Shown here one piece after another: positions 2,050 to 41,180 of a DNA stretch of 64,000 bases. The notes beneath the pieces were generated by a model that saw only the letters and a list, made by a program, of their open reading frames with translations, made no database searches and was not told the DNA's origin. A program made the position numbers and the translations under genes. The stretch is taken from the sequence record NC_103192.1. One strand, given 5' to 3'. The DNA is from a phage. How positions within the stretch are numbered: position 1 is the first letter of the stretch; each line of letters opens with the position of its first letter.

Positions 2050-4121
2050 TGGCAACAGCTGTTTTTAAACCTTACCGTGATTACTCTACGATGGCTGCAC
2101 GGTTTCATTACCGCACAGTTCAGGATACTGCAGTTCCAGGTAGGGATTATGATCATGTTGAGGGAGATGTAACTATCCCGGTTGGAGCAACCAGTATTGA
2201 GATCCCTGTAGAAATTGTTGACAAATTGCCAAACAGGTTGCCAAGAAGCTTCTTTATGGAGTTTTCATCAAACTCCCAAGGGGTTATGATTGGAACACAA
2301 AGAGCGAAATGTACAATAGTTTCAGATGAGAATCTTGACAGAATATCTTGGGATACCGTTGAGGAGAGAATGTTTCACCCAAGATATTGGGTTACAACCA
2401 CACAGCAGACTGAAAGCACCTGCATTGTTGCGGATAATAACTGCTGTATTAACCGTTTAGTGTCAAGAACATATGGAGGCATGGCTGGGTGCATTTGGGA
2501 AACAGTTGACAAGTATGACCATTTCGGCATTGGATTTGATGATCACTACGAGATGAGAAACACCAAGCTTTGGTTCAGAATGTCAATAACCAATGCCAGC
2601 AACTTCTCCACCCCTGAAAAGATGATTATGACTGTAGACCTTGTTGACGGCACAATCATCTATGTTCCTTTAGCTCAATATGCTGTCAGCATCTCAGAGG
2701 ATAAGAATGTTGCAGAAATTCATATTGATTTCGAGGACTGCGTCGGGATGGACCAGAACAACAATATGATGGGTGTTGATCCTCGGCAGGTGAGAAAGAT
2801 TTTAATACCGCTTATGCCTAAAGATTGGGTAAGTAATAGCACAGACCCAAGAACGGAAAATGTAGAGTGCGAGTTGCGTCTAGATCTGCTTCAGCCGGAC
2901 ACAGGCTGGAAAATGATGCAACTTAACAATATCCAGGTGAAAGAGCACGACGTCGGGATCTGCACAGCATATGACGATATGTGGAACGTATCCCCTTTAA
3001 GGGTGTTGAGCAATATCAAGCGTCTGGGCTATACCGGAACCATAAATCATTATGTTGGTATGAGTCATTATTATGACTACACATGGTCAGGAACCCAATG
3101 GTCTATAAACAAAACAGGGGCTCTAAACGCTGCAGCTTATAAATGGCATGATGATTTTATGTACAATGCCAAACGACATGACTTCGACGTTATGCAGTCT
3201 GTAAGCTTCGAGCTTTATAGCGATGCCTGTCCGTTGGAATGGACCCAGAGAGACTGGAACGATAACTACGCTAAAACAGGATATACACCTTGTAGCTACC
3301 TCCTGTCTCCAACCATTGAAGAGGGTATGAATTTCCTTACTGCAGTATTTAAGAATTTTGCATCAGCCGCTATGAGAAACAACCTGCCAGTGATTATGCA
3401 GGTTGGTGAACCGTGGTGGTGGTACAATACCGATACTCGTAGACCTTGTATTTATGATTACCCTACAAAGCAGGCGTTTTATGATGAGACAGGTGAGTAT
3501 GCATTAGATATTGGGACTATTGACGATCCTAAAACTGGTGGTGTTTACGACAAGTATGTAGCATTTTGTCGTGGTAAGCTTGGCGCTCGTATTGCGGCTA
3601 TTTCAAAGGCAATAAAAGCACACGCTGCATCGGCTCAGATGACAGCTTTACTGTTTTTCCCCACTATTATGGAAACCGAGCTTACGCAAAAACTGAACCT
3701 TGCTGACCAATATAAAAAGGAAGCAGGCGCTCTTGATTTCTTCTGCACTGAGTGCTACGATTGGGTGATGCAGGGAGGTATTGAAAAGGCAAAAGAGTCT
3801 GTAAACATACCTATCGTTAAGTTAGGTTGGAAACCGTCTGAAATACAATACCTTGCAGGGTTCGTTCCTAGCAAAGAGCTTGCTCCGGTATATGGCTACG
3901 ACCCAACCAGGAATTACCAAGAATTTTTATGGAGATGTATTTGCGGAAACATGGCAACCATAGAGTATAGATACCCTGAGGTAAAACAGTATGTGTGGGC
4001 ATACCCGCAAGTAATGTCTGACAGCATCACTGTTACCGCCAGAGATTCTACCGTGCTTCATATGGGACAGGTTGCTCTGAAAGGGTATGTAGAAGATGTT
4101 GTCCCGCCAGACTTCTCATAA
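2049..4121 (+). CDS. virion structural protein, tail/baseplate associated
   Basis: 690-aa ORF, start overlaps previous stop (ATGA-type coupling), directly upstream of tail fiber gene. Confidence 0.6.
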   Translation: MATAVFKPYRDYSTMAARFHYRTVQDTAVPGRDYDHVEGDVTIPVGATSIEIPVEIVDKLPNRLPRSFFMEFSSNSQGVMIGTQRAKCTIVSDENLDRISWDTVEERMFHPRYWVTTTQQTESTCIVADNNCCINRLVSRTYGGMAGCIWETVDKYDHFGIGFDDHYEMRNTKLWFRMSITNASNFSTPEKMIMTVDLVDGTIIYVPLAQYAVSISEDKNVAEIHIDFEDCVGMDQNNNMMGVDPRQVRKILIPLMPKDWVSNSTDPRTENVECELRLDLLQPDTGWKMMQLNNIQVKEHDVGICTAYDDMWNVSPLRVLSNIKRLGYTGTINHYVGMSHYYDYTWSGTQWSINKTGALNAAAYKWHDDFMYNAKRHDFDVMQSVSFELYSDACPLEWTQRDWNDNYAKTGYTPCSYLLSPTIEEGMNFLTAVFKNFASAAMRNNLPVIMQVGEPWWWYNTDTRRPCIYDYPTKQAFYDETGEYALDIGTIDDPKTGGVYDKYVAFCRGKLGARIAAISKAIKAHAASAQMTALLFFPTIMETELTQKLNLADQYKKEAGALDFFCTECYDWVMQGGIEKAKESVNIPIVKLGWKPSEIQYLAGFVPSKELAPVYGYDPTRNYQEFLWRCICGNMATIEYRYPEVKQYVWAYPQVMSDSITVTARDSTVLHMGQVALKGYVEDVVPPDFS

Positions 4122-4133
4122 TCAGGAGATAAA

Positions 4134-5174
4134 ATGTCAAAACCTAGTTTTCCATTAGAGATTTGGGCAGAGGAGGATCAGGTTCTGCCTAACACCCACA
4201 GACAGAACAGGCTACGCCCGATTGATGATTTGTGGAGAAAAGGTTGGGATCTTGGTCAAAAGCCATCCTGTGAAGAACTTAACTATATTTTCAATATGCT
4301 CGGGACTTGGGCAAAATACATTGCTGACGAGCAGATCCCCGCTCAAGAAGGCCGTTATCTGGTACGTGATAATAACTTGAGTGATCTTTTGAACATCCCT
4401 GTTGCCCGTAGAAACCTTGGTATTATTACTAAGGAAGAGGCAGACGCCAGGTATGTGAAAGTTGCAGGTGATACAATGACAGGCCCATTGGGTTTGCAAC
4501 GTATCAACTTTAAAGCTGCCGATACAGATAAGGCTTGGATAGAGACAACTATTGGCCCAGATAAGACAACCCTTGACTTTGGGTTAAGTGATAATATTGG
4601 GGCGTTCGATGATGGTGGCACATCTACAGTAGATGCGTTCCGTTGGAGATTCCAGCCAACTCAGCCGGACATTAACCCAGAGTTCACTCTGATGTACCTG
4701 AACGCAATCACGGCTAATCGTGCGTTGTTGAAAGTGGTGGGCAATGTTGAAGTTGTTGATAACATGCGATGTAATAACCTCACCATTAGCAGCACAGCAA
4801 CATTCACCAACTGCAATGTAGCTAGTCAGTTGACGGCTGGGTCAGTATATGTCAATGGTGGTGCAAGTTGTGACAGTATGGTTGTAAGAAGCCAGCATTG
4901 TGTTGTCGGTAACAGAAATGTGGTGCGCTCTGTGAATGGAGTGACGGCTAACGGCAACGGAGATGTAACGATCACCATCCCGCAGACAGGTGTACAGGAT
5001 ATCAGAATCGGTGCAAGACTTGTTGACGGTGTTTCTGAATCTCCGGTTCGCAACGGTTATGTTGTCACAGGTTGGCATTTTGGTGATAAAAAAGAGATGC
5101 GTGGTTCAACCTACTGGGCAGGACCTTTACAAAAACTTGTAAATGGTCAATGGATCACTGTTAATTATGCGTAG
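4134..5174 (+). CDS. tail fiber protein (paralog A)
   Basis: 346 aa; N-terminus MSKPSFPLEIW..., GDTMTGPL collar-like motif, C-terminus QKLVNGQWITVNYA shared with ORF 6189-7232. Confidence 0.75.
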   Translation: MSKPSFPLEIWAEEDQVLPNTHRQNRLRPIDDLWRKGWDLGQKPSCEELNYIFNMLGTWAKYIADEQIPAQEGRYLVRDNNLSDLLNIPVARRNLGIITKEEADARYVKVAGDTMTGPLGLQRINFKAADTDKAWIETTIGPDKTTLDFGLSDNIGAFDDGGTSTVDAFRWRFQPTQPDINPEFTLMYLNAITANRALLKVVGNVEVVDNMRCNNLTISSTATFTNCNVASQLTAGSVYVNGGASCDSMVVRSQHCVVGNRNVVRSVNGVTANGNGDVTITIPQTGVQDIRIGARLVDGVSESPVRNGYVVTGWHFGDKKEMRGSTYWAGPLQKLVNGQWITVNYA

Positions 5175-5188
5175 ATCGGAGGACTAGC

Positions 5189-5773
5189 ATGAAAATACTT
5201 CAAGAGTTTAAACTTTACCAGCCGGGATCTGGCGAATACTACACCAACAAGGAGACCAAGGAGCTGACTCCTCAGGAGGTTGAGGATTACACAGCATACA
5301 CTGGATATTTTTTACGTAATGATGATGGCGATTGGTATGTGCAATCACGAACACTGCGACAAGAAAATCCAGGCTGTATCTTCCTACTTGTTGACGAGAA
5401 GGGTATTCTTAAGACATCTACAGAAGAACCTGATGCCTTGTGGCCTGCTCCAGGTCTTCGTGTGGTTATCGCCAAAAAAGAAGAGGTACCAGAAAACATT
5501 ATGCTCCACCACGACGCTTTGCGTTTAGTTGGTGATGAATTTGTCACAGACAATGAATTCTTTGTTCAACAGGCAGAGGGTGTCATAGAGACAGAACTTG
5601 CTTGGGCTACTGCTAGAATTGGTGCCTATCAAGACATGATTGACCTTGAATACGATCTTACTGATGACCAAAAACGCAACATCAGAGATTTGAAAATGTA
5701 CAGGGTAAAACTTCTTGAAATAGATACATCTAAAGCCCCTGACATTTTCTTCCCGGAACGACCTACCCTCTAA
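5189..5773 (+). CDS. hypothetical protein, possibly tail fiber assembly/chaperone
   Basis: 194-aa ORF immediately downstream of tail fiber gene; function by position only. Confidence 0.45.
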   Translation: MKILQEFKLYQPGSGEYYTNKETKELTPQEVEDYTAYTGYFLRNDDGDWYVQSRTLRQENPGCIFLLVDEKGILKTSTEEPDALWPAPGLRVVIAKKEEVPENIMLHHDALRLVGDEFVTDNEFFVQQAEGVIETELAWATARIGAYQDMIDLEYDLTDDQKRNIRDLKMYRVKLLEIDTSKAPDIFFPERPTL

Positions 5774-37105: not shown

Positions 37106-40100
37106 ATGAGCATGTATAGCTTCGATTTTGAGGCCTCCGGGCTTTTGGAAGATCCAGATCTTTATTATCACTGCGGCCTGTTTAAAGAGCTGAATAAGAA
37201 CCGTTTTATGCTGTTCCTCCCTCTAAATGACCGCACACACTACTCCGAGGAGGATATAGAGAAGGCTAAGAACTTTATTCTGGCAAAGAAAACTCTTTAT
37301 AAAGATTTTGAAGTTCGCATAGCAGATTTTTCAGAGTTGGAAGGTTGGCTTACAGGCAATTCTGACTGGTCACCAACAGCTTTGAACTGCCATAACTGCT
37401 ACAGTTATGACTTTATGCTGATGGAGAGATTATCCGGTATTCATTTTGATATGTTCCGTGATCCTAAATGCATGGGTACTATCAACGATCACCAGGTTAA
37501 CCTGTTTGATACGTTGGCGATGAGCCGAATCTTGTGGCCTGATCGCCCTTTACCAAAAGGTTGCCCGGACGCTGTATTCAACCCGGTTACTAAGAAAATG
37601 CAGCCTGTTGGTCCTCACGGCCTTATGGCATGGGGCTACGCTCTTGGTAACCAGAAAGTTCAAATTGATGACTGGCGCGATCTTCCGCTGTGGAAGTATG
37701 TGGATCGTGTATTTGAGGACGTTATCATCCAGGAGCTGCTCTGGAAAGAGCTAGTAGCGGAATCAAAAGGTGTATTCTACGGCAAATCTGACATGCAGAA
37801 CTTCATGTATGACCCTGCCAAAGAGAAGCCTAAAGGATTCAAGAAGATTACCTGGAAGAATGCATTACGCCGAGGCATGCTGCAGCACTTCCTGATGGAG
37901 CTGCAGGCCCGTCAGGGTGTGTATTTCGACATAGATGGGGCTATTGCTTTACGTGACCGTTGCGATGCGTGGATGAAAGAGATCGCTGATCGTGTTGAAC
38001 CTCAACTCCCTTTAAAAGAGTTGTCAATATCTCAGCGGCCCAAGTTCCCTGAAAAGCCGTTTAACCAAGATGGGACAATCTCCAATAATGGTTGGAAATG
38101 GTTAAAAGATAAGCTTGGCTACCCTGTGGACATGAGCGCTTTAGATTTCAAAGCCCCACCTAAGCGAGCATTTACCTCCACAGGAGATGTCAGTAAGATG
38201 GGGATAAAATGGTGTGAAGAGATGGGCTGCAAAGACCCCGATAAGATGGCTGCTTTCTTGAGAGGCTATATTAAGGGCACTTCCACACCACAACCTTTAC
38301 CTAAAGAGCTGATGGATCAGGCAATAAGTGATCTACAGCAGAAGCGAATGCCTGACTGCAAGATACCTATGAAAATCAGCAATCAGGACGACATTAAGCG
38401 ATACCTGATCAGTGCTGGTTGGCTTCCGACAATGTGGAGAACTAAGGATGTAACTAAAGACAGCAAGAAGAAAGCTCTACCTGATGCAGATGTTGATGCA
38501 CGAGTATATGCATATATGGACGAGCTTTTAGAGTCAGAGTATTGTGACCTAATTATCAACTTCTGGAACAAAACTGATGCTAAGTTTCAGACAACAGTGC
38601 ACAAGTTCCGAAGCTTTCCTAACTCCGAAAGGATTAAAAAGGAAGTATTCGGGAAAATACGCAGAAAAGCTAGGGCACTTATTACTTCCCCGCAACTGAA
38701 AGATACGTTTGGACACCTATGCCCGAATCTTGAAAGATTGAACGGAGAGATGGCTAAAGATATCGTCTTGTGGTTATCATTGCGAAACCGCAGATCGGTA
38801 CTTGATCCAATCAAGGAGGATAAGGTTGATACTGGTCTTCTTAATCACCCACGTTTGAAGATTGACCATAAGCTTCCTGCTAAAAGCTCTGGATTAACAA
38901 ACACTTCCCGACAGAAACACAGTATTTGTGCAAACATGCCTAAACCATCTCCTAAAGTGGTTATGGGTAAAGAGATGCGTAGTCTGTGGGGTGTTCCTCC
39001 AGGATACTTTGAGATCGGTATTGACGGGTCTAACTTGGAGCAGCTTATCGGGGCTTGGGGTGCCTTTGAGTTCGACAACGGCCTGTATTACGATGTTGTA
39101 AGTAACGGCGATGCACACTGTTATTCAGGAGATACACAAATTCTCACGGAGAAAGGGTGGGTGAGGTTTGAAGATCTTGATCCGGGAACACAAGTGTTCC
39201 AGTACGATCACAACACCTCGTCGATGAACCTTGTTACTCCATTAAATTACGTTAAGCGTAGTTATTGTGGGGATATGTATCATTTCCACAACAGCGGTGT
39301 GGATTTTATGGTTACAGATCAACACAGGATGCTGACCGTGGATCACAGAAGCAATAAATTGTTTGAAGATTTGGCAAAAGACCTGAAAGCAGGTAAAGGG
39401 TCTAATTCAGGAAGAAGGTTTATCCATGCGGCAGAGTTTTATGGGAATACAACCTTATCTCCTGCCCAGGTTAATTTGCTTATTGCTATTCACGATGATG
39501 GGCACTTGCATACAAATAAGGACGGCAGCATCGTGTGCAGGATTCAGGTCGGGAAGGGCAGAAAAGTTGCAACGCTTTTAGATACTTTTTCTGCTCTAAG
39601 CCTTAGTTATGTAGAGCAGAGCGGGAAAACCACAAAAGGGGGCTTACTGGCGAGAAGGTTCCAATTCCACGTTCCGTCCTGGGTATTTGAGTTTTTGGAC
39701 AGCAATAAGGATTTCACCTACAACCTGATGGACCTTGATAAAGAATCTAAAAACCTGTTTATAGCTTCTTTATCTAACTGGGACGGGTGGGTATCTTCCG
39801 AAGGTGGAAAAGTTGCCTACTACTCTCAGGCCGAGTGCAGGAAGAAATCTGTAGAGGTTGTGTCTGCGCTGGCTACTCAGTGTGGTTTACGGAATAATAC
39901 GGTAGCGATTCACAAAAAAGGTCGTTCCGTACAGCACAGAATCACGATTGGTAGCAAACAGAGAGCAGGGTTGCTGACACTATCTAAAGAGTCTGTCGAG
40001 GTGAGCGGTTCTTTGGTTTATTGCGTTACCGTCCCTTCTGGAGCAATCATTGTGAGAAGGAATGGTAAAGTGGCAGTGTGCGGTAACTGTAATAACGCCA

Positions 40101-41180
40101 AAGCTTACTCTTCTGTAGCAGGCAAGGAGATTTCCCGTAACGATGGTAAGCCTGTCACGTACGGTGTTATGTACGGGGCACAAAAAGATAAAGTTGCAGA
40201 TATGCTGGACATCTCTCCAGAGTTGGGACAAAGGGTAATCGATGCGCTTTGGGATGCCAACCCCGGTCTTAAGGGGCGTAAAGAGGATCTGGAGAAATTC
40301 TGGGAAGCAACTGGTAAGAAGTTTATCTACTCTTTTGATGGTCATGCCATCTGGACCCGATCTAAACACTCTTTACTTAATGCATACCAACAAAATGGTG
40401 GTGCATCGTTGTGTGACTTAGTTGGGATACTCATGCACCACCAAATGGTGAAGCGTGGGTGGTACGATGAAGGTGTTCGCCGTATTATCTATTACCATAA
40501 ATAACATTGTGGCTTCGTGCAGTGATGCACGTCGAAAACCTCTTTAATTGACGGGAAGGCTAAGTTGACTTTTACACCTAAACATGGTAAAAGCTCGATA
40601 TGCTAATCCGCAGCGAAGCATCCGAGAGGATGAACGTTCAGAGACTATCGAAAGCATAGCTCCAGCATAGTTTGGTGTGAAGAAGCGAGTAGAGTAGGCC
40701 AGCAAGTGCGGTCGAAATGAGAGGTGCCTTGGTAACAAGGCAGTGAGATAGTCCGATCCATACGGGAAACTGTATGGCTATGCACGTAATGGTGCGGGGT
40801 AGCTTAACGACCTACCTGAACTATTGGATGAGTACCAACTTCAAGTACCTGACACACCGAAGTATAAGACTGTGTACACCTTCGACACAATCGAAGAACT
40901 GGAAGCATTTAAGGCAGAGCAGGAGGCCAAACTTCATGTGTTCGACGGTCATAAGTACAAAAAGGCACGCAAGGATGAGGACGGAAACGAAGTGGTTGAC
41001 AGAGACGGAAACACGGTGTACGATCCTATCCTGAACGATGACGGAAAGCTTGAACTTATCTGGAGCCCTGTGGGTGAAATGGTGGTGCATTGCTTCTGGC
41101 AAGCTTCTAAAATGATGGGCGTCCCATTCCAGATCACAGGTGAATACTTGTGTGGGGCTAATTGGGGTAGTTGTCACTAA
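37106..41180 (+). CDS. family A DNA polymerase, exons 37106-40498 and 40827-41180, containing an intein
   Basis: N-terminal exo motif FDFEASGL; motif A IDGSNLEQL; KPVTYGVMYGAQ (motif B region); HDE motif split across the intron (YYH | DEYQL); C-terminus GANWGSCH. Confidence 0.85.
39119..40087 (+). mobile_element. intein (323 aa) with LAGLIDADG-like homing endonuclease domain
   Basis: begins CYSGDTQILTEKGW (block A), block B TDQH, LAGLIDADG-like LLIAIHDDGHL and LFIASLSNWDGW, ends ...VCGN followed by Cys +1; extein flanks GDAH/CNNAK fit the family A pol O-helix region. Confidence 0.7.
40499..40826 (+). ncRNA. group I self-splicing intron (ORF-less)
   Basis: core elements P aattgacgggaagg (40546-40559), Q aatccgcagc (40605-40614), R gttcagagacta (40636-40647), S agatagtcc (40746-40754); 5' exon ends in U, intron ends in G; restores the HDE motif in frame. 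Confidence 0.8.

Follow-up and report, generated by a model that had tools for sequence, protein, structure and literature searches.

A group I intron without an endonuclease gene at catalytic motif C of the family-A DNA polymerase gene of a vequintavirus

Locus, reading frame and splice junction

The phage of NC_103192.1 is a Vequintavirus (rV5-like coliphage). In the window, by which the whole 64-kb stretch of DNA analysed here is meant, positions 40499-40826 of the plus strand are very probably occupied by a group I intron of 328 nt that lacks an endonuclease ORF and lies inside the gene of a family-A DNA polymerase. The gene is laid out as follows.

37106..40498 (+): exon 1 of the family-A DNA polymerase, 1131 codons with last residues ...RRIIYYH (ORF list)
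39119..40087 (+): intein of 323 aa (CYSGDTQIL...VAVCGN, then +1 Cys), in the exon 1 frame, with LAGLIDADG-like motifs
40499..40826 (+): group I intron, 328 nt (Rfam RF00028), with boundaries set by the intron-less phage slur12
40502..40504 (+): in-frame UAA in loop L1, codon 2 of the intron (sequence)
40826 (+): terminal G (omega-G), the 3' splice site following directly (sequence)
40827..41180 (+): exon 2, DEYQLQVPD...GANWGSCH*, of 117 codons and a stop; in intron-less phages it continues exon 1 colinearly

The insertion point is found after the His codon CAT, which ends at 40498, and before the Asp-Glu codons GAT GAG, which start at 40827, where exon 2 opens with GAT GAG TAC CAA (DEYQ); the stop of the frame ...GANWGSCH* is at 41180. 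As the initial annotation had proposed, the polymerase frame stops at 40502-40504 after ...RRIIYYH (ORF 37106..40504 ends ...RRIIYYHK*) and resumes at 40827 with DEYQLQVPD to reach the C-terminus ...GANWGSCH, both being read in the sequence. The proposed insert length of 328 nt and the terminal G, at 40826, were likewise confirmed, and the term ORF-less is true as to an endonuclease gene, none being present. ORF 37106..40504 includes one codon beyond His (AAA, Lys) before TAA 40502-40504, and the short ORFs overlapping the intron (40774..41034 on the plus strand, 40544..40738 and 40645..40785 on the minus strand) are mechanical.

The predicted joined exons read ...TATTACCAT|GATGAGTAC..., and intron-less sister phages read ...TATTACCAT|GACGAATAT... 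without interruption. In slur12 the junction is TATTACCAT|GACGAATATCAG, colinear to the nucleotide, and at least five intron-less phages match the spliced protein over a single colinear piece of 648 nt with 97-99% identity. The exact junction, for which a comparison with intron-less homologues had been advised, is thus confirmed by the colinear alleles of the sister phages. The same ...Y-H|D-E... boundary is interrupted in all 13 related introns (that of the window and 12 others, from seven host genera), every one of which ends in ...UG, and an in-frame stop is found at intron codon 2 in 12 of the 13.

Regarding the identity of the polymerase, the spliced protein can be aligned with T7 DNA polymerase (iiyyHDEyql against mawvHDEiqv, 653-658; E 2e-13), the GIDGSNLE of exon 1 being aligned with GIDASGLE of T7. 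The idea that splicing rebuilds an HDE motif finds support here, since the joined HDE falls on H653-D654-E655 of T7 DNA polymerase and the sister alleles are colinear. The H of HDE corresponds to His881 of E. coli Pol I. The last 99 aa of exon 1 are 100% identical to vequintavirus polymerases. Because the polymerase is divergent, Pfam DNA_pol_A reaches only 21.4 bits on the spliced protein, under its gathering score of 34.3, and the family assignment rests on the T7 alignment and not on Pfam. From unspliced RNA, only the truncated ...YYHK* protein would be made, devoid of the motif C carboxylates.

The intein in exon 1 directly follows the residues NGDAH, in the stretch from polymerase motif A to motif B; the intein-less slur12 reads NGDAH|QNNAE at this point. 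Its profile matches are Hint_2 (E 1e-4, under the Pfam cut-off) and the AceL NrdHF intein (E 1.7e-5), and 6 of 115 related records contain it.

Covariance-model match and secondary structure

The covariance-model search advised in the initial annotation returned Rfam RF00028 at 40489-40776 with 73.7 bits, well over the gathering score of 50 (E 8e-17); the match spans the full model, positions 1-253. This is the sole Rfam match in the 64 kb, even at E<=0.1, and no second intron was found in the window by Rfam at that threshold. The elements P (40546-40559), Q (40605-40614), R (40636-40647) and S (40746-40754) stand in the canonical order that had been claimed for them, and both their order and their roles agree with the Rfam group I model. 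This match ends within P9, at 40776, and the final 50 nt before the 3' splice site consist of the hairpins P9.1 and P9.2. The structural elements are listed below.

40495..40512 (+): P1, exon CCAU plus intron AA (40495-40500) with guide UUGUGG (40507-40512) (Rfam alignment)
40505..40508 (+): guide half of P10, CAUU, pairing with the exon-2 start GAUG (40827-40830)
40516..40531 (+): P2 hairpin CGUGCA-GUGA-UGCACG; double-sided compensatory changes in 6/6 pairs, 100% of cells paired
40538..40544 (+): P3 5' strand ACCUCUU, partner 40719-40725; double-sided changes in 3/7 pairs
40549-50 and 40552-55 with 40607-12 (+): P4, of the P and Q elements (Rfam alignment, fold)
40558-60 with 40602-04 (+): P5 (Rfam alignment, fold)
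40564-75 with 40587-99 (+): P5a extended arm, variable; deleted in the 276-nt allele
40613-15 with 40635-37 (+): P6, covarying
40619-40632 (+): P6a hairpin CAUCC-GAGA-GGAUG, covarying; position of the HNH ORF in sister alleles
40641..40647 (+): P7 5' strand (R element: G40641, bulged A40642, GACUA), partner 40749-40754
40648-40693 (+): P7.1 peripheral domain, long in the window, with a predicted fold; a mini-hairpin in the 276-nt allele
40694-40696 (+): GUA linker, invariant; G-U-A-G in 12/12 introns
40697-40713 (+): P7.2 hairpin, covarying
40719..40725 (+): P3 3' strand GAGAGGU, partner 40538-40544 (alignment of 12 introns)
40726..40741 (+): P8 hairpin GCCUUG-GUAA-CAAGGC; double-sided changes in 5/6 pairs
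40749..40754 (+): P7 3' strand (S element, UAGUCC) (Rfam and 12-intron alignment)
40758..40777 (+): P9 hairpin with GAAA loop; double-sided changes in 4/8 pairs, 98.9% of cells paired
40782-85 with 40792-95 (+): P9.1, covarying; past the end of the Rfam match
40797-802 with 40812-17 (+): P9.2, covarying; past the end of the Rfam match

This structure was derived by hand and tested on a MAFFT alignment of 12 ORF-trimmed introns from phages of Escherichia, Klebsiella, Cronobacter, Pectobacterium, Aeromonas, Pseudomonas, and Vibrio. Across the 12 introns, 91.2% of the cells are paired, against 34.7-41.2% in slid controls, and 42 pairs exhibit double-sided changes, against 7-18 in the same kind of control; in 500 shuffles, the observed values of four of the five measures were never attained, and the covariation score was attained by 0/500. 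All the proposed pairs in the window are standard pairs, and double-sided changes are present in each of P3, P6, P7, and P8. Support from covariation extends to the whole structure and takes in the P3/P7 pseudoknot. The P7 helix of this pseudoknot is 100% paired with two double-sided pairs (GACUA/UAGUC to GGCCA/UGGUC), and the pairing of R with S had been correctly anticipated, GACUA (40643-47) being paired with UAGUC (40749-53). In P4, the pair G40553-C40609 is seen by eye to become U-A in seven relatives. A real structural conflict in P4, P5, and P5a was considered and rejected, the apparent mismatches arising where the alignment slips near a bulged A and near the variable arm. Folding energy by itself gives a modest signal (z = -1.95; 4 of 100 shuffled sequences fold equally well).

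The 6-bp P1 contains a U40498·G40509 wobble, the 5' splice site following U40498, as expected from the earlier proposal that intron GUGG (40509-40512) pairs with the exon-terminal U. P1 is paired in 12/12 introns but is near-invariant, with a single G·U variant at the innermost pair, and therefore contributes no covariation support. P10 is 4 bp long in the window and nine other relatives and 2-3 bp long in the Aeromonas, Pseudomonas, and Vibrio copies; together, P1 and P10 would form eight contiguous pairs across the ligated exons. With regard to classification, subgroup IA2 is recognized by two additional helices, P7.1 and P7.2, that lie between P7 and P3' and are linked through G-U-A (PMC3428280). 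Both domains are held in the 71 nt that separate P7 from P3' in the window and, the fold of P7.1 being a predicted one, the intron can be assigned putatively to IA2.

A splicing pathway can be proposed on this basis. The pre-mRNA would fold into a P1-P10 ribozyme, in which the guide CAUUGUGG (40505-40512) would hold the exon 1 end CCAU through the U40498·G40509 wobble, allowing attack by an external guanosine after U40498. The guide would then align exon 2 GAUG by P10, the 3'-OH of exon 1 would attack after G40826, and the joining of CAT|GAT would restore the His-Asp-Glu motif C and the ...NWxxxH C-terminus. On unspliced RNA, ribosomes would be stopped by UAA 40502-40504.

The data support reading the insert as an ORF-less group I intron whose splicing rebuilds motif C, and efficient splicing of the 328-nt copy in vivo is presumed. 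Two other explanations were weighed. Were the ribozyme a dead relic, the polymerase would consist of two separately translated polypeptides assembling afterwards, like the mobE-split NrdA reported from Aeromonas phage Aeh1. Exon 2 is indeed annotated as a CDS of its own by gene callers in JLBYU08, SYGMH1, rV5, and FV3, and the TTG at 40824 lies in its frame; moreover, an intron-like appearance is no guarantee of activity, since one HNH-bearing intron of Pectobacterium phage CB7, CB7_245, failed to splice in a published assay (PMC7344957). However, the CB7 intron at the same site as that of the window does splice (PMC7344957), all the core helices of the window are intact in a family that covaries, and the guide sequence fits both exons. 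Upstream of 40827 there is neither a Shine-Dalgarno sequence at the right spacing nor an in-frame ATG: the nearest start, TTG 40824, is made of the last three nucleotides of the intron, and the closest G-rich run (40796-99) lies about 25 nt from it, within P9.2. Because start signals are absent, independent translation of exon 2 was ruled out, and such a split would also part the His from the Asp-Glu of one catalytic motif, which together make a dead relic very unlikely. The probability that the insert is an assembly or sequencing artefact, or comes from a chimeric contig, is close to nil, nothing having been found in its favour, and near-identical inserts with the same boundaries are found in many independently sequenced phages.

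Alleles in Vequintavirus and origin of the 328-nt form

At this site, the genus has four alleles: one has no intron, and the others have introns of 276 nt, of 328/329 nt, or of 842 nt, the last with an HNH gene placed in P6a. Among the best 60 of 116 matching records, 24 are intron-less, 17 carry the 276-nt ORF-less form, 18 the 842-nt HNH-bearing form, and one a form of 329 nt. The intron copy of SYGMH1 is 98.8% identical to that of the window. The HNH ORF of the sister alleles encodes 168 aa, and the sole difference between the intron of the window and the 842-nt form is the 14-nt P6a hairpin, replaced by a 528-nt cassette.

No homing endonuclease gene is present in the 328-nt intron, whose length leaves no room for one and whose P6a hairpin stands in the place of the HNH ORF, and no HNH paralog was found in the whole 64-kb window (E<0.01). 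As to how the intron moves, without a homing endonuclease it would therefore be inherited vertically by itself, and its spread is probably only passive, by recombination or co-conversion with an endonuclease from a co-infecting relative.

It can be hypothesized, as a tentative reading, that an HNH-bearing 842-nt allele gave rise to the 328-nt form recently by losing its endonuclease, which would make the latter an immobile remnant on its way to disappearing in the homing cycle and not an old 'empty' ribozyme lineage. Such a loss is favored by the 98-99% identity to the HNH alleles of HeinrichReichert and FV3 outside P6a, by the rarity of the 328/329-nt allele (1 of the 60 tallied, besides SYGMH1 and HMD-6), and by the absence of the intron from about 40% of the tallied records. 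It was not a simple deletion, however, the 14-nt hairpin CAUCCGAGAGGAUG being unlike either end of the cassette (ACUAAAGGGG...CCUGGUAGU), and a closely similar short P6a, CAUCCCUACGGGAUG, is found in the distant Avunavirus-like introns of TH18 and 19-1-2, which are about 76% identical overall. Because the hairpin is unlike the cassette ends and a similar P6a occurs in TH18 and 19-1-2, the sequences point to an old ORF-less P6a that may have been moved between alleles by recombination; the change could have gone in either direction. On balance unlikely is a proposal in which the ribozyme and the endonuclease gene are separate mobile units, the HNH cassette being swapped at P6a and ORF-less alleles spreading in trans. 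Candidate trans endonucleases are the intron-borne HNH or a homologous free-standing HNH; a homologous free-standing HNH gene is found directly after the polymerase gene in phita32, 241Ecol014PP, K54_rec2, and CB7, and the HNH-annotated gene after the polymerase of Vibrio K460 shows no similarity. If true, the separate mobility of ribozyme and endonuclease gene would make this a coliphage case of 'collaborative homing', with empty, ORF-less, and HNH-bearing stages coexisting at roughly 40/30/30%. With the four-allele series at one site and a rare intein elsewhere in the gene, the genus offers a handy natural system for studying how coliphages acquire and lose selfish elements.

Known relatives and annotation

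Phage DNA polymerase genes have been known to carry group I introns since the SPO1 case of 1990. The td, nrdB, and sunY introns of T4, an E. coli myophage, belong to subgroup IA2 and have an in-frame stop soon after the 5' splice site, that of nrdB being naturally ORF-less or degenerate; their host genes are other than the polymerase gene occupied in the window.

Because sister phages are already annotated with the same intron at the same site, the finding is not novel; it is correct but ordinary. In the BASEL GenBank records, the polymerase is given as a two-piece join around the 842-nt and the 276-nt forms alike. MaxTheCat (MZ501094, 276-nt ORF-less) and HeinrichReichert (MZ501073, 842 nt with a homing endonuclease) share the genus, gene, CAT|GAT site, and guide with the window; the 276-nt form of the former is about 85% identical to the window over the shared parts but lacks its long P5a and P7.1 arms, and the 842-nt form of the latter has the HNH cassette where the window has the short P6a hairpin. 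The intron boundaries are said to be annotated, the polymerase intron itself not being described (Maffei et al., 2021; PMC8594841). Pectobacterium phage CB7 (Certrevirus), one of the Vequintavirinae like the phage of the window, has the identical ...RRIIYYH|DEYQ site and the same guide sequence. The 5' end of its intron is AAGUAACAUUGUGG, the 3' core is about 75% identical to the window, and the splicing of this intron, which bears the HNH gene CB7_50, was demonstrated by RT-PCR and Sanger sequencing (Buttimer et al., 2020; PMC7344957). The CB7 intron is 687 nt long, with an ORF (MGNQQ...) that has its start in L5 and extends across the Q element, and CB7 carries a second, upstream polymerase intron that is lacking in the window.

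Farther afield, the ΦI and W31 introns, from T7-like coliphages, are described in the part of the literature consulted as IA2 introns of family-A polymerase genes at 'site 881' (E. coli Pol I numbering) with an HNH in P6a (Bonocora and Shub, 2004, J Bacteriol 186:8153, through PMC3428280; accessions AY769989 and AY769990). By this account, they would share site and subgroup with the intron of the window, and the place of the HNH gene with its sister alleles; the ΦI and W31 introns have an HNH ORF that the window's lacks, and their hosts are podoviruses whereas the phage of the window is a myovirus. The introns of SPO1, SP82, Bastille, and Pf-WMP3 (I-HmuI, I-HmuII, I-BasI, and I-PfoP3I) are self-splicing group IA2 introns of phage family-A polymerase genes (PMC3428280, PMC11878797). 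Unlike the intron of the window, they sit not in motif C but at site 674 (E. coli numbering, finger subdomain), and each of them carries a gene for a nicking HNH endonuclease. The motif C site itself has been known since 2004 and 2020-2021.

A tblastn search with the intron HNH protein returned 526 records from many phage groups, among which no informative T7-like polymerase case was found. Two candidate T7-like copies were rejected, namely Salmonella phage S.Kent 1-2-1 (~43 kb), which shares the P9-P9.2 end only and whose intron (L019 1846-2532) is in another gene without T7-polymerase similarity, and Salmonella phage SI5, which is P22-like and has a free-standing HNH.

While nothing biologically unexpected is added, annotation is concerned: many vequintavirus records, including that of the type phage rV5, show a truncated polymerase and a small ORF named 'DNA polymerase' or 'hypothetical'. 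In the rV5 genome paper, a 775-aa polymerase is given and the intron goes unmentioned. The correct product would be one spliced polymerase, which in the phage of NC_103192.1 would additionally be intein-processed. Spurious ORFs are called within the intron in some public vequintavirus records.

Reading frame and boundaries of the intron

The plus-strand ORF at 37106..40504 in the window's ORF list terminates in ...GVRRIIYYHK*, a single Lys codon separating the His from the TAA stop at 40502-40504, and the same frame runs from 40827 to 41180 as DEYQLQVPD...GANWGSCH*. The initial annotation, in which the polymerase frame stops after ...RRIIYYH and resumes at DEYQLQVPD, is borne out by these translations, and the P (40546-59), Q (40605-14), R (40636-47) and S (40746-54) elements that it had proposed are found within the 328-nt insert, which ends in the predicted G (G40826). 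A covariance-model search, which had been suggested as a check, gave a plus-strand hit to RF00028 (group I catalytic intron) spanning 40489-40776, with the whole model covered and 73.7 bits against a gathering score of 50 (E 8e-17). This match is far beyond chance and is the sole Rfam match in the 64-kb window, in which a laxer scan (E<=0.1) returned no further ones.

Vequintavirus genomes, including rV5, FV3 and the BASEL phages HeinrichReichert and MaxTheCat, match the region at 94-98% identity and share its gene order primase/helicase, polymerase, small ORFs; the best-matching records are about 97% identical and none is identical. Once exon 1 (37106..40498) and exon 2 (40827..41180) are joined, the C-terminal 216 aa align colinearly, as a single stretch of 648 nt with 97-99% identity, to several vequintaviruses (A6-1, slur12, JES2013, MiataMamis, ECP2303). 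The slur12 polymerase is a single CDS of 2778 nt whose DNA at the junction reads ...ATCTATTACCAT|GACGAATATCAG..., and because this intron-less homologue is colinear across the junction, the insert is fixed exactly as 40499-40826. Compared with solved structures, GIDGSNLE of the spliced protein aligns with GIDASGLE of T7 DNA polymerase and iiyyHDEyql with mawvHDEiqv at residues 653-658 (E 2e-13), so the intron splits motif C between its His and Asp codons. In family-A polymerases the two catalytic carboxylates that bind metal include this Asp, so the earlier view that without splicing the product would be inactive is sound. The observation is confirmed and its interpretation as a group I intron is supported.

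Ordinary group I self-splicing, the best-supported reading, would rebuild a single polymerase mRNA, and translation of unspliced RNA would end at the UAA that forms the second intron codon. A stop in frame at this codon is conserved in 12 of the 13 related introns. Independent translation of exon 2 appears unlikely, since neither an in-frame ATG nor a suitably placed Shine-Dalgarno sequence precedes 40827. In public records exon 2 has an entry of its own, as a 'DNA polymerase' or hypothetical CDS, and short 'hypothetical protein' ORFs are annotated within or overlapping the intron (rV5 ORFs 226 and 227, FV3_00207); both look like gene-caller artefacts.

Annotated intron and exon 2 ORFs
rV5 polymerase locus (L005), 4328-4781
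FV3 polymerase locus (L003), 5489-5749
Window, 40774-41034

Intron structure and covariation

Helices were derived from the Rfam alignment and local folds.

Structural elements of the window intron
40495-500 with 40507-12 (+), P1, including the U40498·G40509 wobble
40827-30 with 40505-08 (+), P10
40516-21 with 40526-31 (+), P2
40538-44 with 40719-25 (+), P3
40549-50 and 40552-55 with 40607-12 (+), P4
40558-60 with 40602-04; 40564-75 with 40587-99 (+), P5 and P5a arm
40613-15 with 40635-37 (+), P6
40619-23 with 40628-32 (+), P6a
40641 and 40643-47 with 40749-54 (+), P7, A40642 bulged
40648-93 (+), P7.1 region
40694-96 (+), GUA linker
40697-713 (+), P7.2
40726-31 with 40736-41 (+), P8
40758-65 with 40770-77 (+), P9
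40782-85 with 40792-95 (+), P9.1
40797-802 with 40812-17 (+), P9.2
40826 (+), terminal G

All proposed pairs are standard in the window, and the guide CAUUGUGG forms eight contiguous pairs with the ligated CCAU|GAUG. The pairing proposed initially between the exon-end U and GUGG is part of a six-pair P1, and the proposed P7 recurs as 40643-47 paired with the 40749-54 region, covarying among relatives. The P7.1 region and P7.2 are joined by G-U-A, the feature by which PMC3428280 recognizes subgroup IA2. The folding energy has a z of -1.95, and thermodynamics alone is only mildly supportive.

Besides the window, 12 same-site introns were collected, from Vequintavirus (JLBYU08, rV5, HeinrichReichert), other Vequintavirinae (the Avunavirus-like TH18, Klebsiella K54_rec2, Salmonella SSE121 of Seunavirus, Escherichia A5-4, and Cronobacter PBES02 and Pectobacterium CB7 of Certrevirus) and outside this subfamily (Aeromonas TS9 of Plateaulakevirus, Pseudomonas SPA01 of Pakpunavirus, Vibrio K460). 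All 12 are inserted at ...Y-H|D-E..., start with A(A/G)(A/G)U...UUGUGGC and end in ...UG. When the window structure was mapped onto an alignment of 12 sequences (endonuclease ORFs trimmed, SSE121 excluded), 91.2% of 935 pair cells held standard pairs, against 34.7-41.2% with 3' partners slid by 1-3 columns; double-sided changes were present at 42 of 84 pairs (7-18 in the slid controls) and the covariation score was 0.374 (0.06-0.09). None of 500 shuffles reached the observed percentage paired, double-sided pairs, double-sided cells or covariation score. All six pairs of P2 have changed, and double-sided changes are present in P3, P6, P6a, P7, P7.2, P8, P9, P9.1 and P9.2. P1 is almost invariant, as expected because the guide must match a conserved target, and the mismatches scored in P4, P5 and P5a arise because the alignment slips around the bulged A40551 of the window and the hypervariable arm.

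In long-P7.1 introns (window 40648-40693, TH18, Aeromonas TS9, Pseudomonas SPA01), P7.1 has at its base two conserved strands, UCGAAA opposite GAGUAGA, that resemble the loop-E/sarcin-ricin motif (AGUA/GAA); the pairs beside them covary (GC/GC, GC/GU, GG/CU, CC/GG).

Alleles, endonucleases and mobility

Four allele states are found at the Vequintavirus site: intron-less (slur12), 276 nt (rV5, phita32, MaxTheCat), 328/329 nt (the window, SYGMH1, which is 98.8% identical, JLBYU08, and HMD-6, whose match covers the whole region in one piece) and 842 nt (HeinrichReichert, FV3 and many others). Missing from the 276-nt allele are the P5a arm and the greater part of P7.1. The 842-nt allele is the window form with a 528-nt cassette in place of the 14-nt P6a hairpin CAUCCGAGAGGAUG, swapped exactly between ...GCGAAG and AACGUUCAG...; a stem of its own bounds the cassette, whose product is a 168-aa HNH protein with a sub-threshold match to HNH_3 (E 0.002). 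Among the 60 best-scoring of 116 matching records, the site is empty in 24 and holds 276 nt in 17, 842/843 nt in 18 and 329 nt in one, so the window's form is the rare one. The window allele may have lost the HNH cassette or may never have had it; the distant TH18 intron has a short P6a hairpin closely like the window's, which suggests that the ORF-less P6a state is old.

Records rV5_ev158 and rV5_ev168 are intron-less and rV5_ev146 has the 842-nt HNH allele (LR694610, LR694611, LR699804), whereas in rV5 itself (NC_011041) the intron is 276 nt long. Should these phages be laboratory derivatives of rV5, recombination would have exchanged the site. About 16 'Campylobacter phage' records (C12, A147, A135 among them; 128-143 kb) match E. 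coli vequintaviruses here at 92-96% identity and carry the same alleles, an odd result if their host is Campylobacter jejuni as stated.

The first 12 nt of exon 2 (window 40827-40838; related-phage loci L002 and L006) show four synonymous differences, GAC GAA TAT CAG in intron-less versus GAT GAG TAC CAA in intron-bearing alleles, a pattern that would be expected of homing with co-conversion. The U at +3 is the base P10 requires. JLBYU08 has a hybrid start (GAT GAA TAT CAG) and a different intron 3' end (AACAGAUG versus AACUAUUG), which suggests that recombination or co-conversion broke off within a few bases of the splice site.

Intron HNH proteins of Escherichia, Klebsiella, Cronobacter and Pseudomonas phages are 50-76% identical. 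A second endonuclease ORF type (MGNQQ...) is found in CB7 (L013, 2450-3136) and Aeromonas TS9 (L014, 960-1698), where it begins in the P5 loop and runs through the conserved Q element, so that AAUCAGCAG is at once P4 strand and Asn-Gln-Gln codons. The window's intron encodes no endonuclease, as initially noted, and no homologue of the intron HNH proteins is encoded in the 64-kb window; for the intron to spread horizontally, co-infecting relatives would thus have to supply either the cleavage or a partner for recombination. Homing introns are known to end up in such an ORF-less state.

The window has no free-standing HNH gene 3' of the polymerase; several relatives have one annotated directly there, which in phita32, 241Ecol014PP and Vibrio K460 accompanies an ORF-less intron, an arrangement reminiscent of 'collaborative homing'. 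Compared with the intron-borne HNH, the phita32 protein is 33% identical and the K460 one shows no similarity. A second group I intron, roughly at motif B judging by position, lies further upstream in the polymerase gene of Seunavirus, Certrevirus and Avunavirus-like phages and is absent from Vequintavirus and the window.

Other elements in related polymerase loci
Free-standing HNH-annotated genes: L004 (phita32), 4948-5595; L007, 5407-6069; L013 (CB7), 3438-3923; L016, 1994-2641
Second upstream intron: L007, ~3254-3967; L013, 1395-2065; L017, 476-1117; L012, 914-1117

Known introns and a co-resident intein

The rV5 genome paper reported introns in the terminase gene only and gave the polymerase as 775 aa (PMC3606486). 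The BASEL authors annotated intron boundaries via comparative genomics (PMC8594841), and the polymerase is joined around an 842-nt intron in the HeinrichReichert record and around a 276-nt ORF-less one in that of MaxTheCat, where the 3054-nt CDS span less 276 gives 2778, the intron-less gene length. For the Certrevirus CB7 polymerase introns, including the one with HNH CB7_50, splicing was shown by RT-PCR and Sanger sequencing (PMC7344957); by sequence comparison, the CB7_50 intron has the same YYH|DE boundary and guide as the window. Bonocora & Shub (2004), as summarized in PMC3428280, described for the T7-like ΦI and W31 polymerase introns of subgroup IA2 that are inserted at 'site 881' (E. 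coli numbering) and bear an HNH gene in P6a. The introns of SPO1, SP82, Bastille and Pf-WMP3 also interrupt genes of this kind, with insertion at site 674 instead. Site 881 corresponds to the His of HDE, and the comparison of the ΦI and W31 introns with the window's is by published description. The window's intron is a further copy of a lineage already annotated in Vequintavirus, at an insertion site already documented in the literature.

The same polymerase gene holds a 323-aa in-frame intein and thus carries both intein and intron; this co-residence and the allele series are convenient and not surprising.

Intein
39119-40087 (+), CYSGDTQIL...VAVCGN, +1 Cys

It has a TDQH block B, two LAGLIDADG-like motifs and Gly, not His, as penultimate residue. 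Intein-less slur12 reads NGDAH|QNNAE, with Gln at +1 in the empty allele versus Cys in the window, and of 115 related phage records only 6 have the intein.
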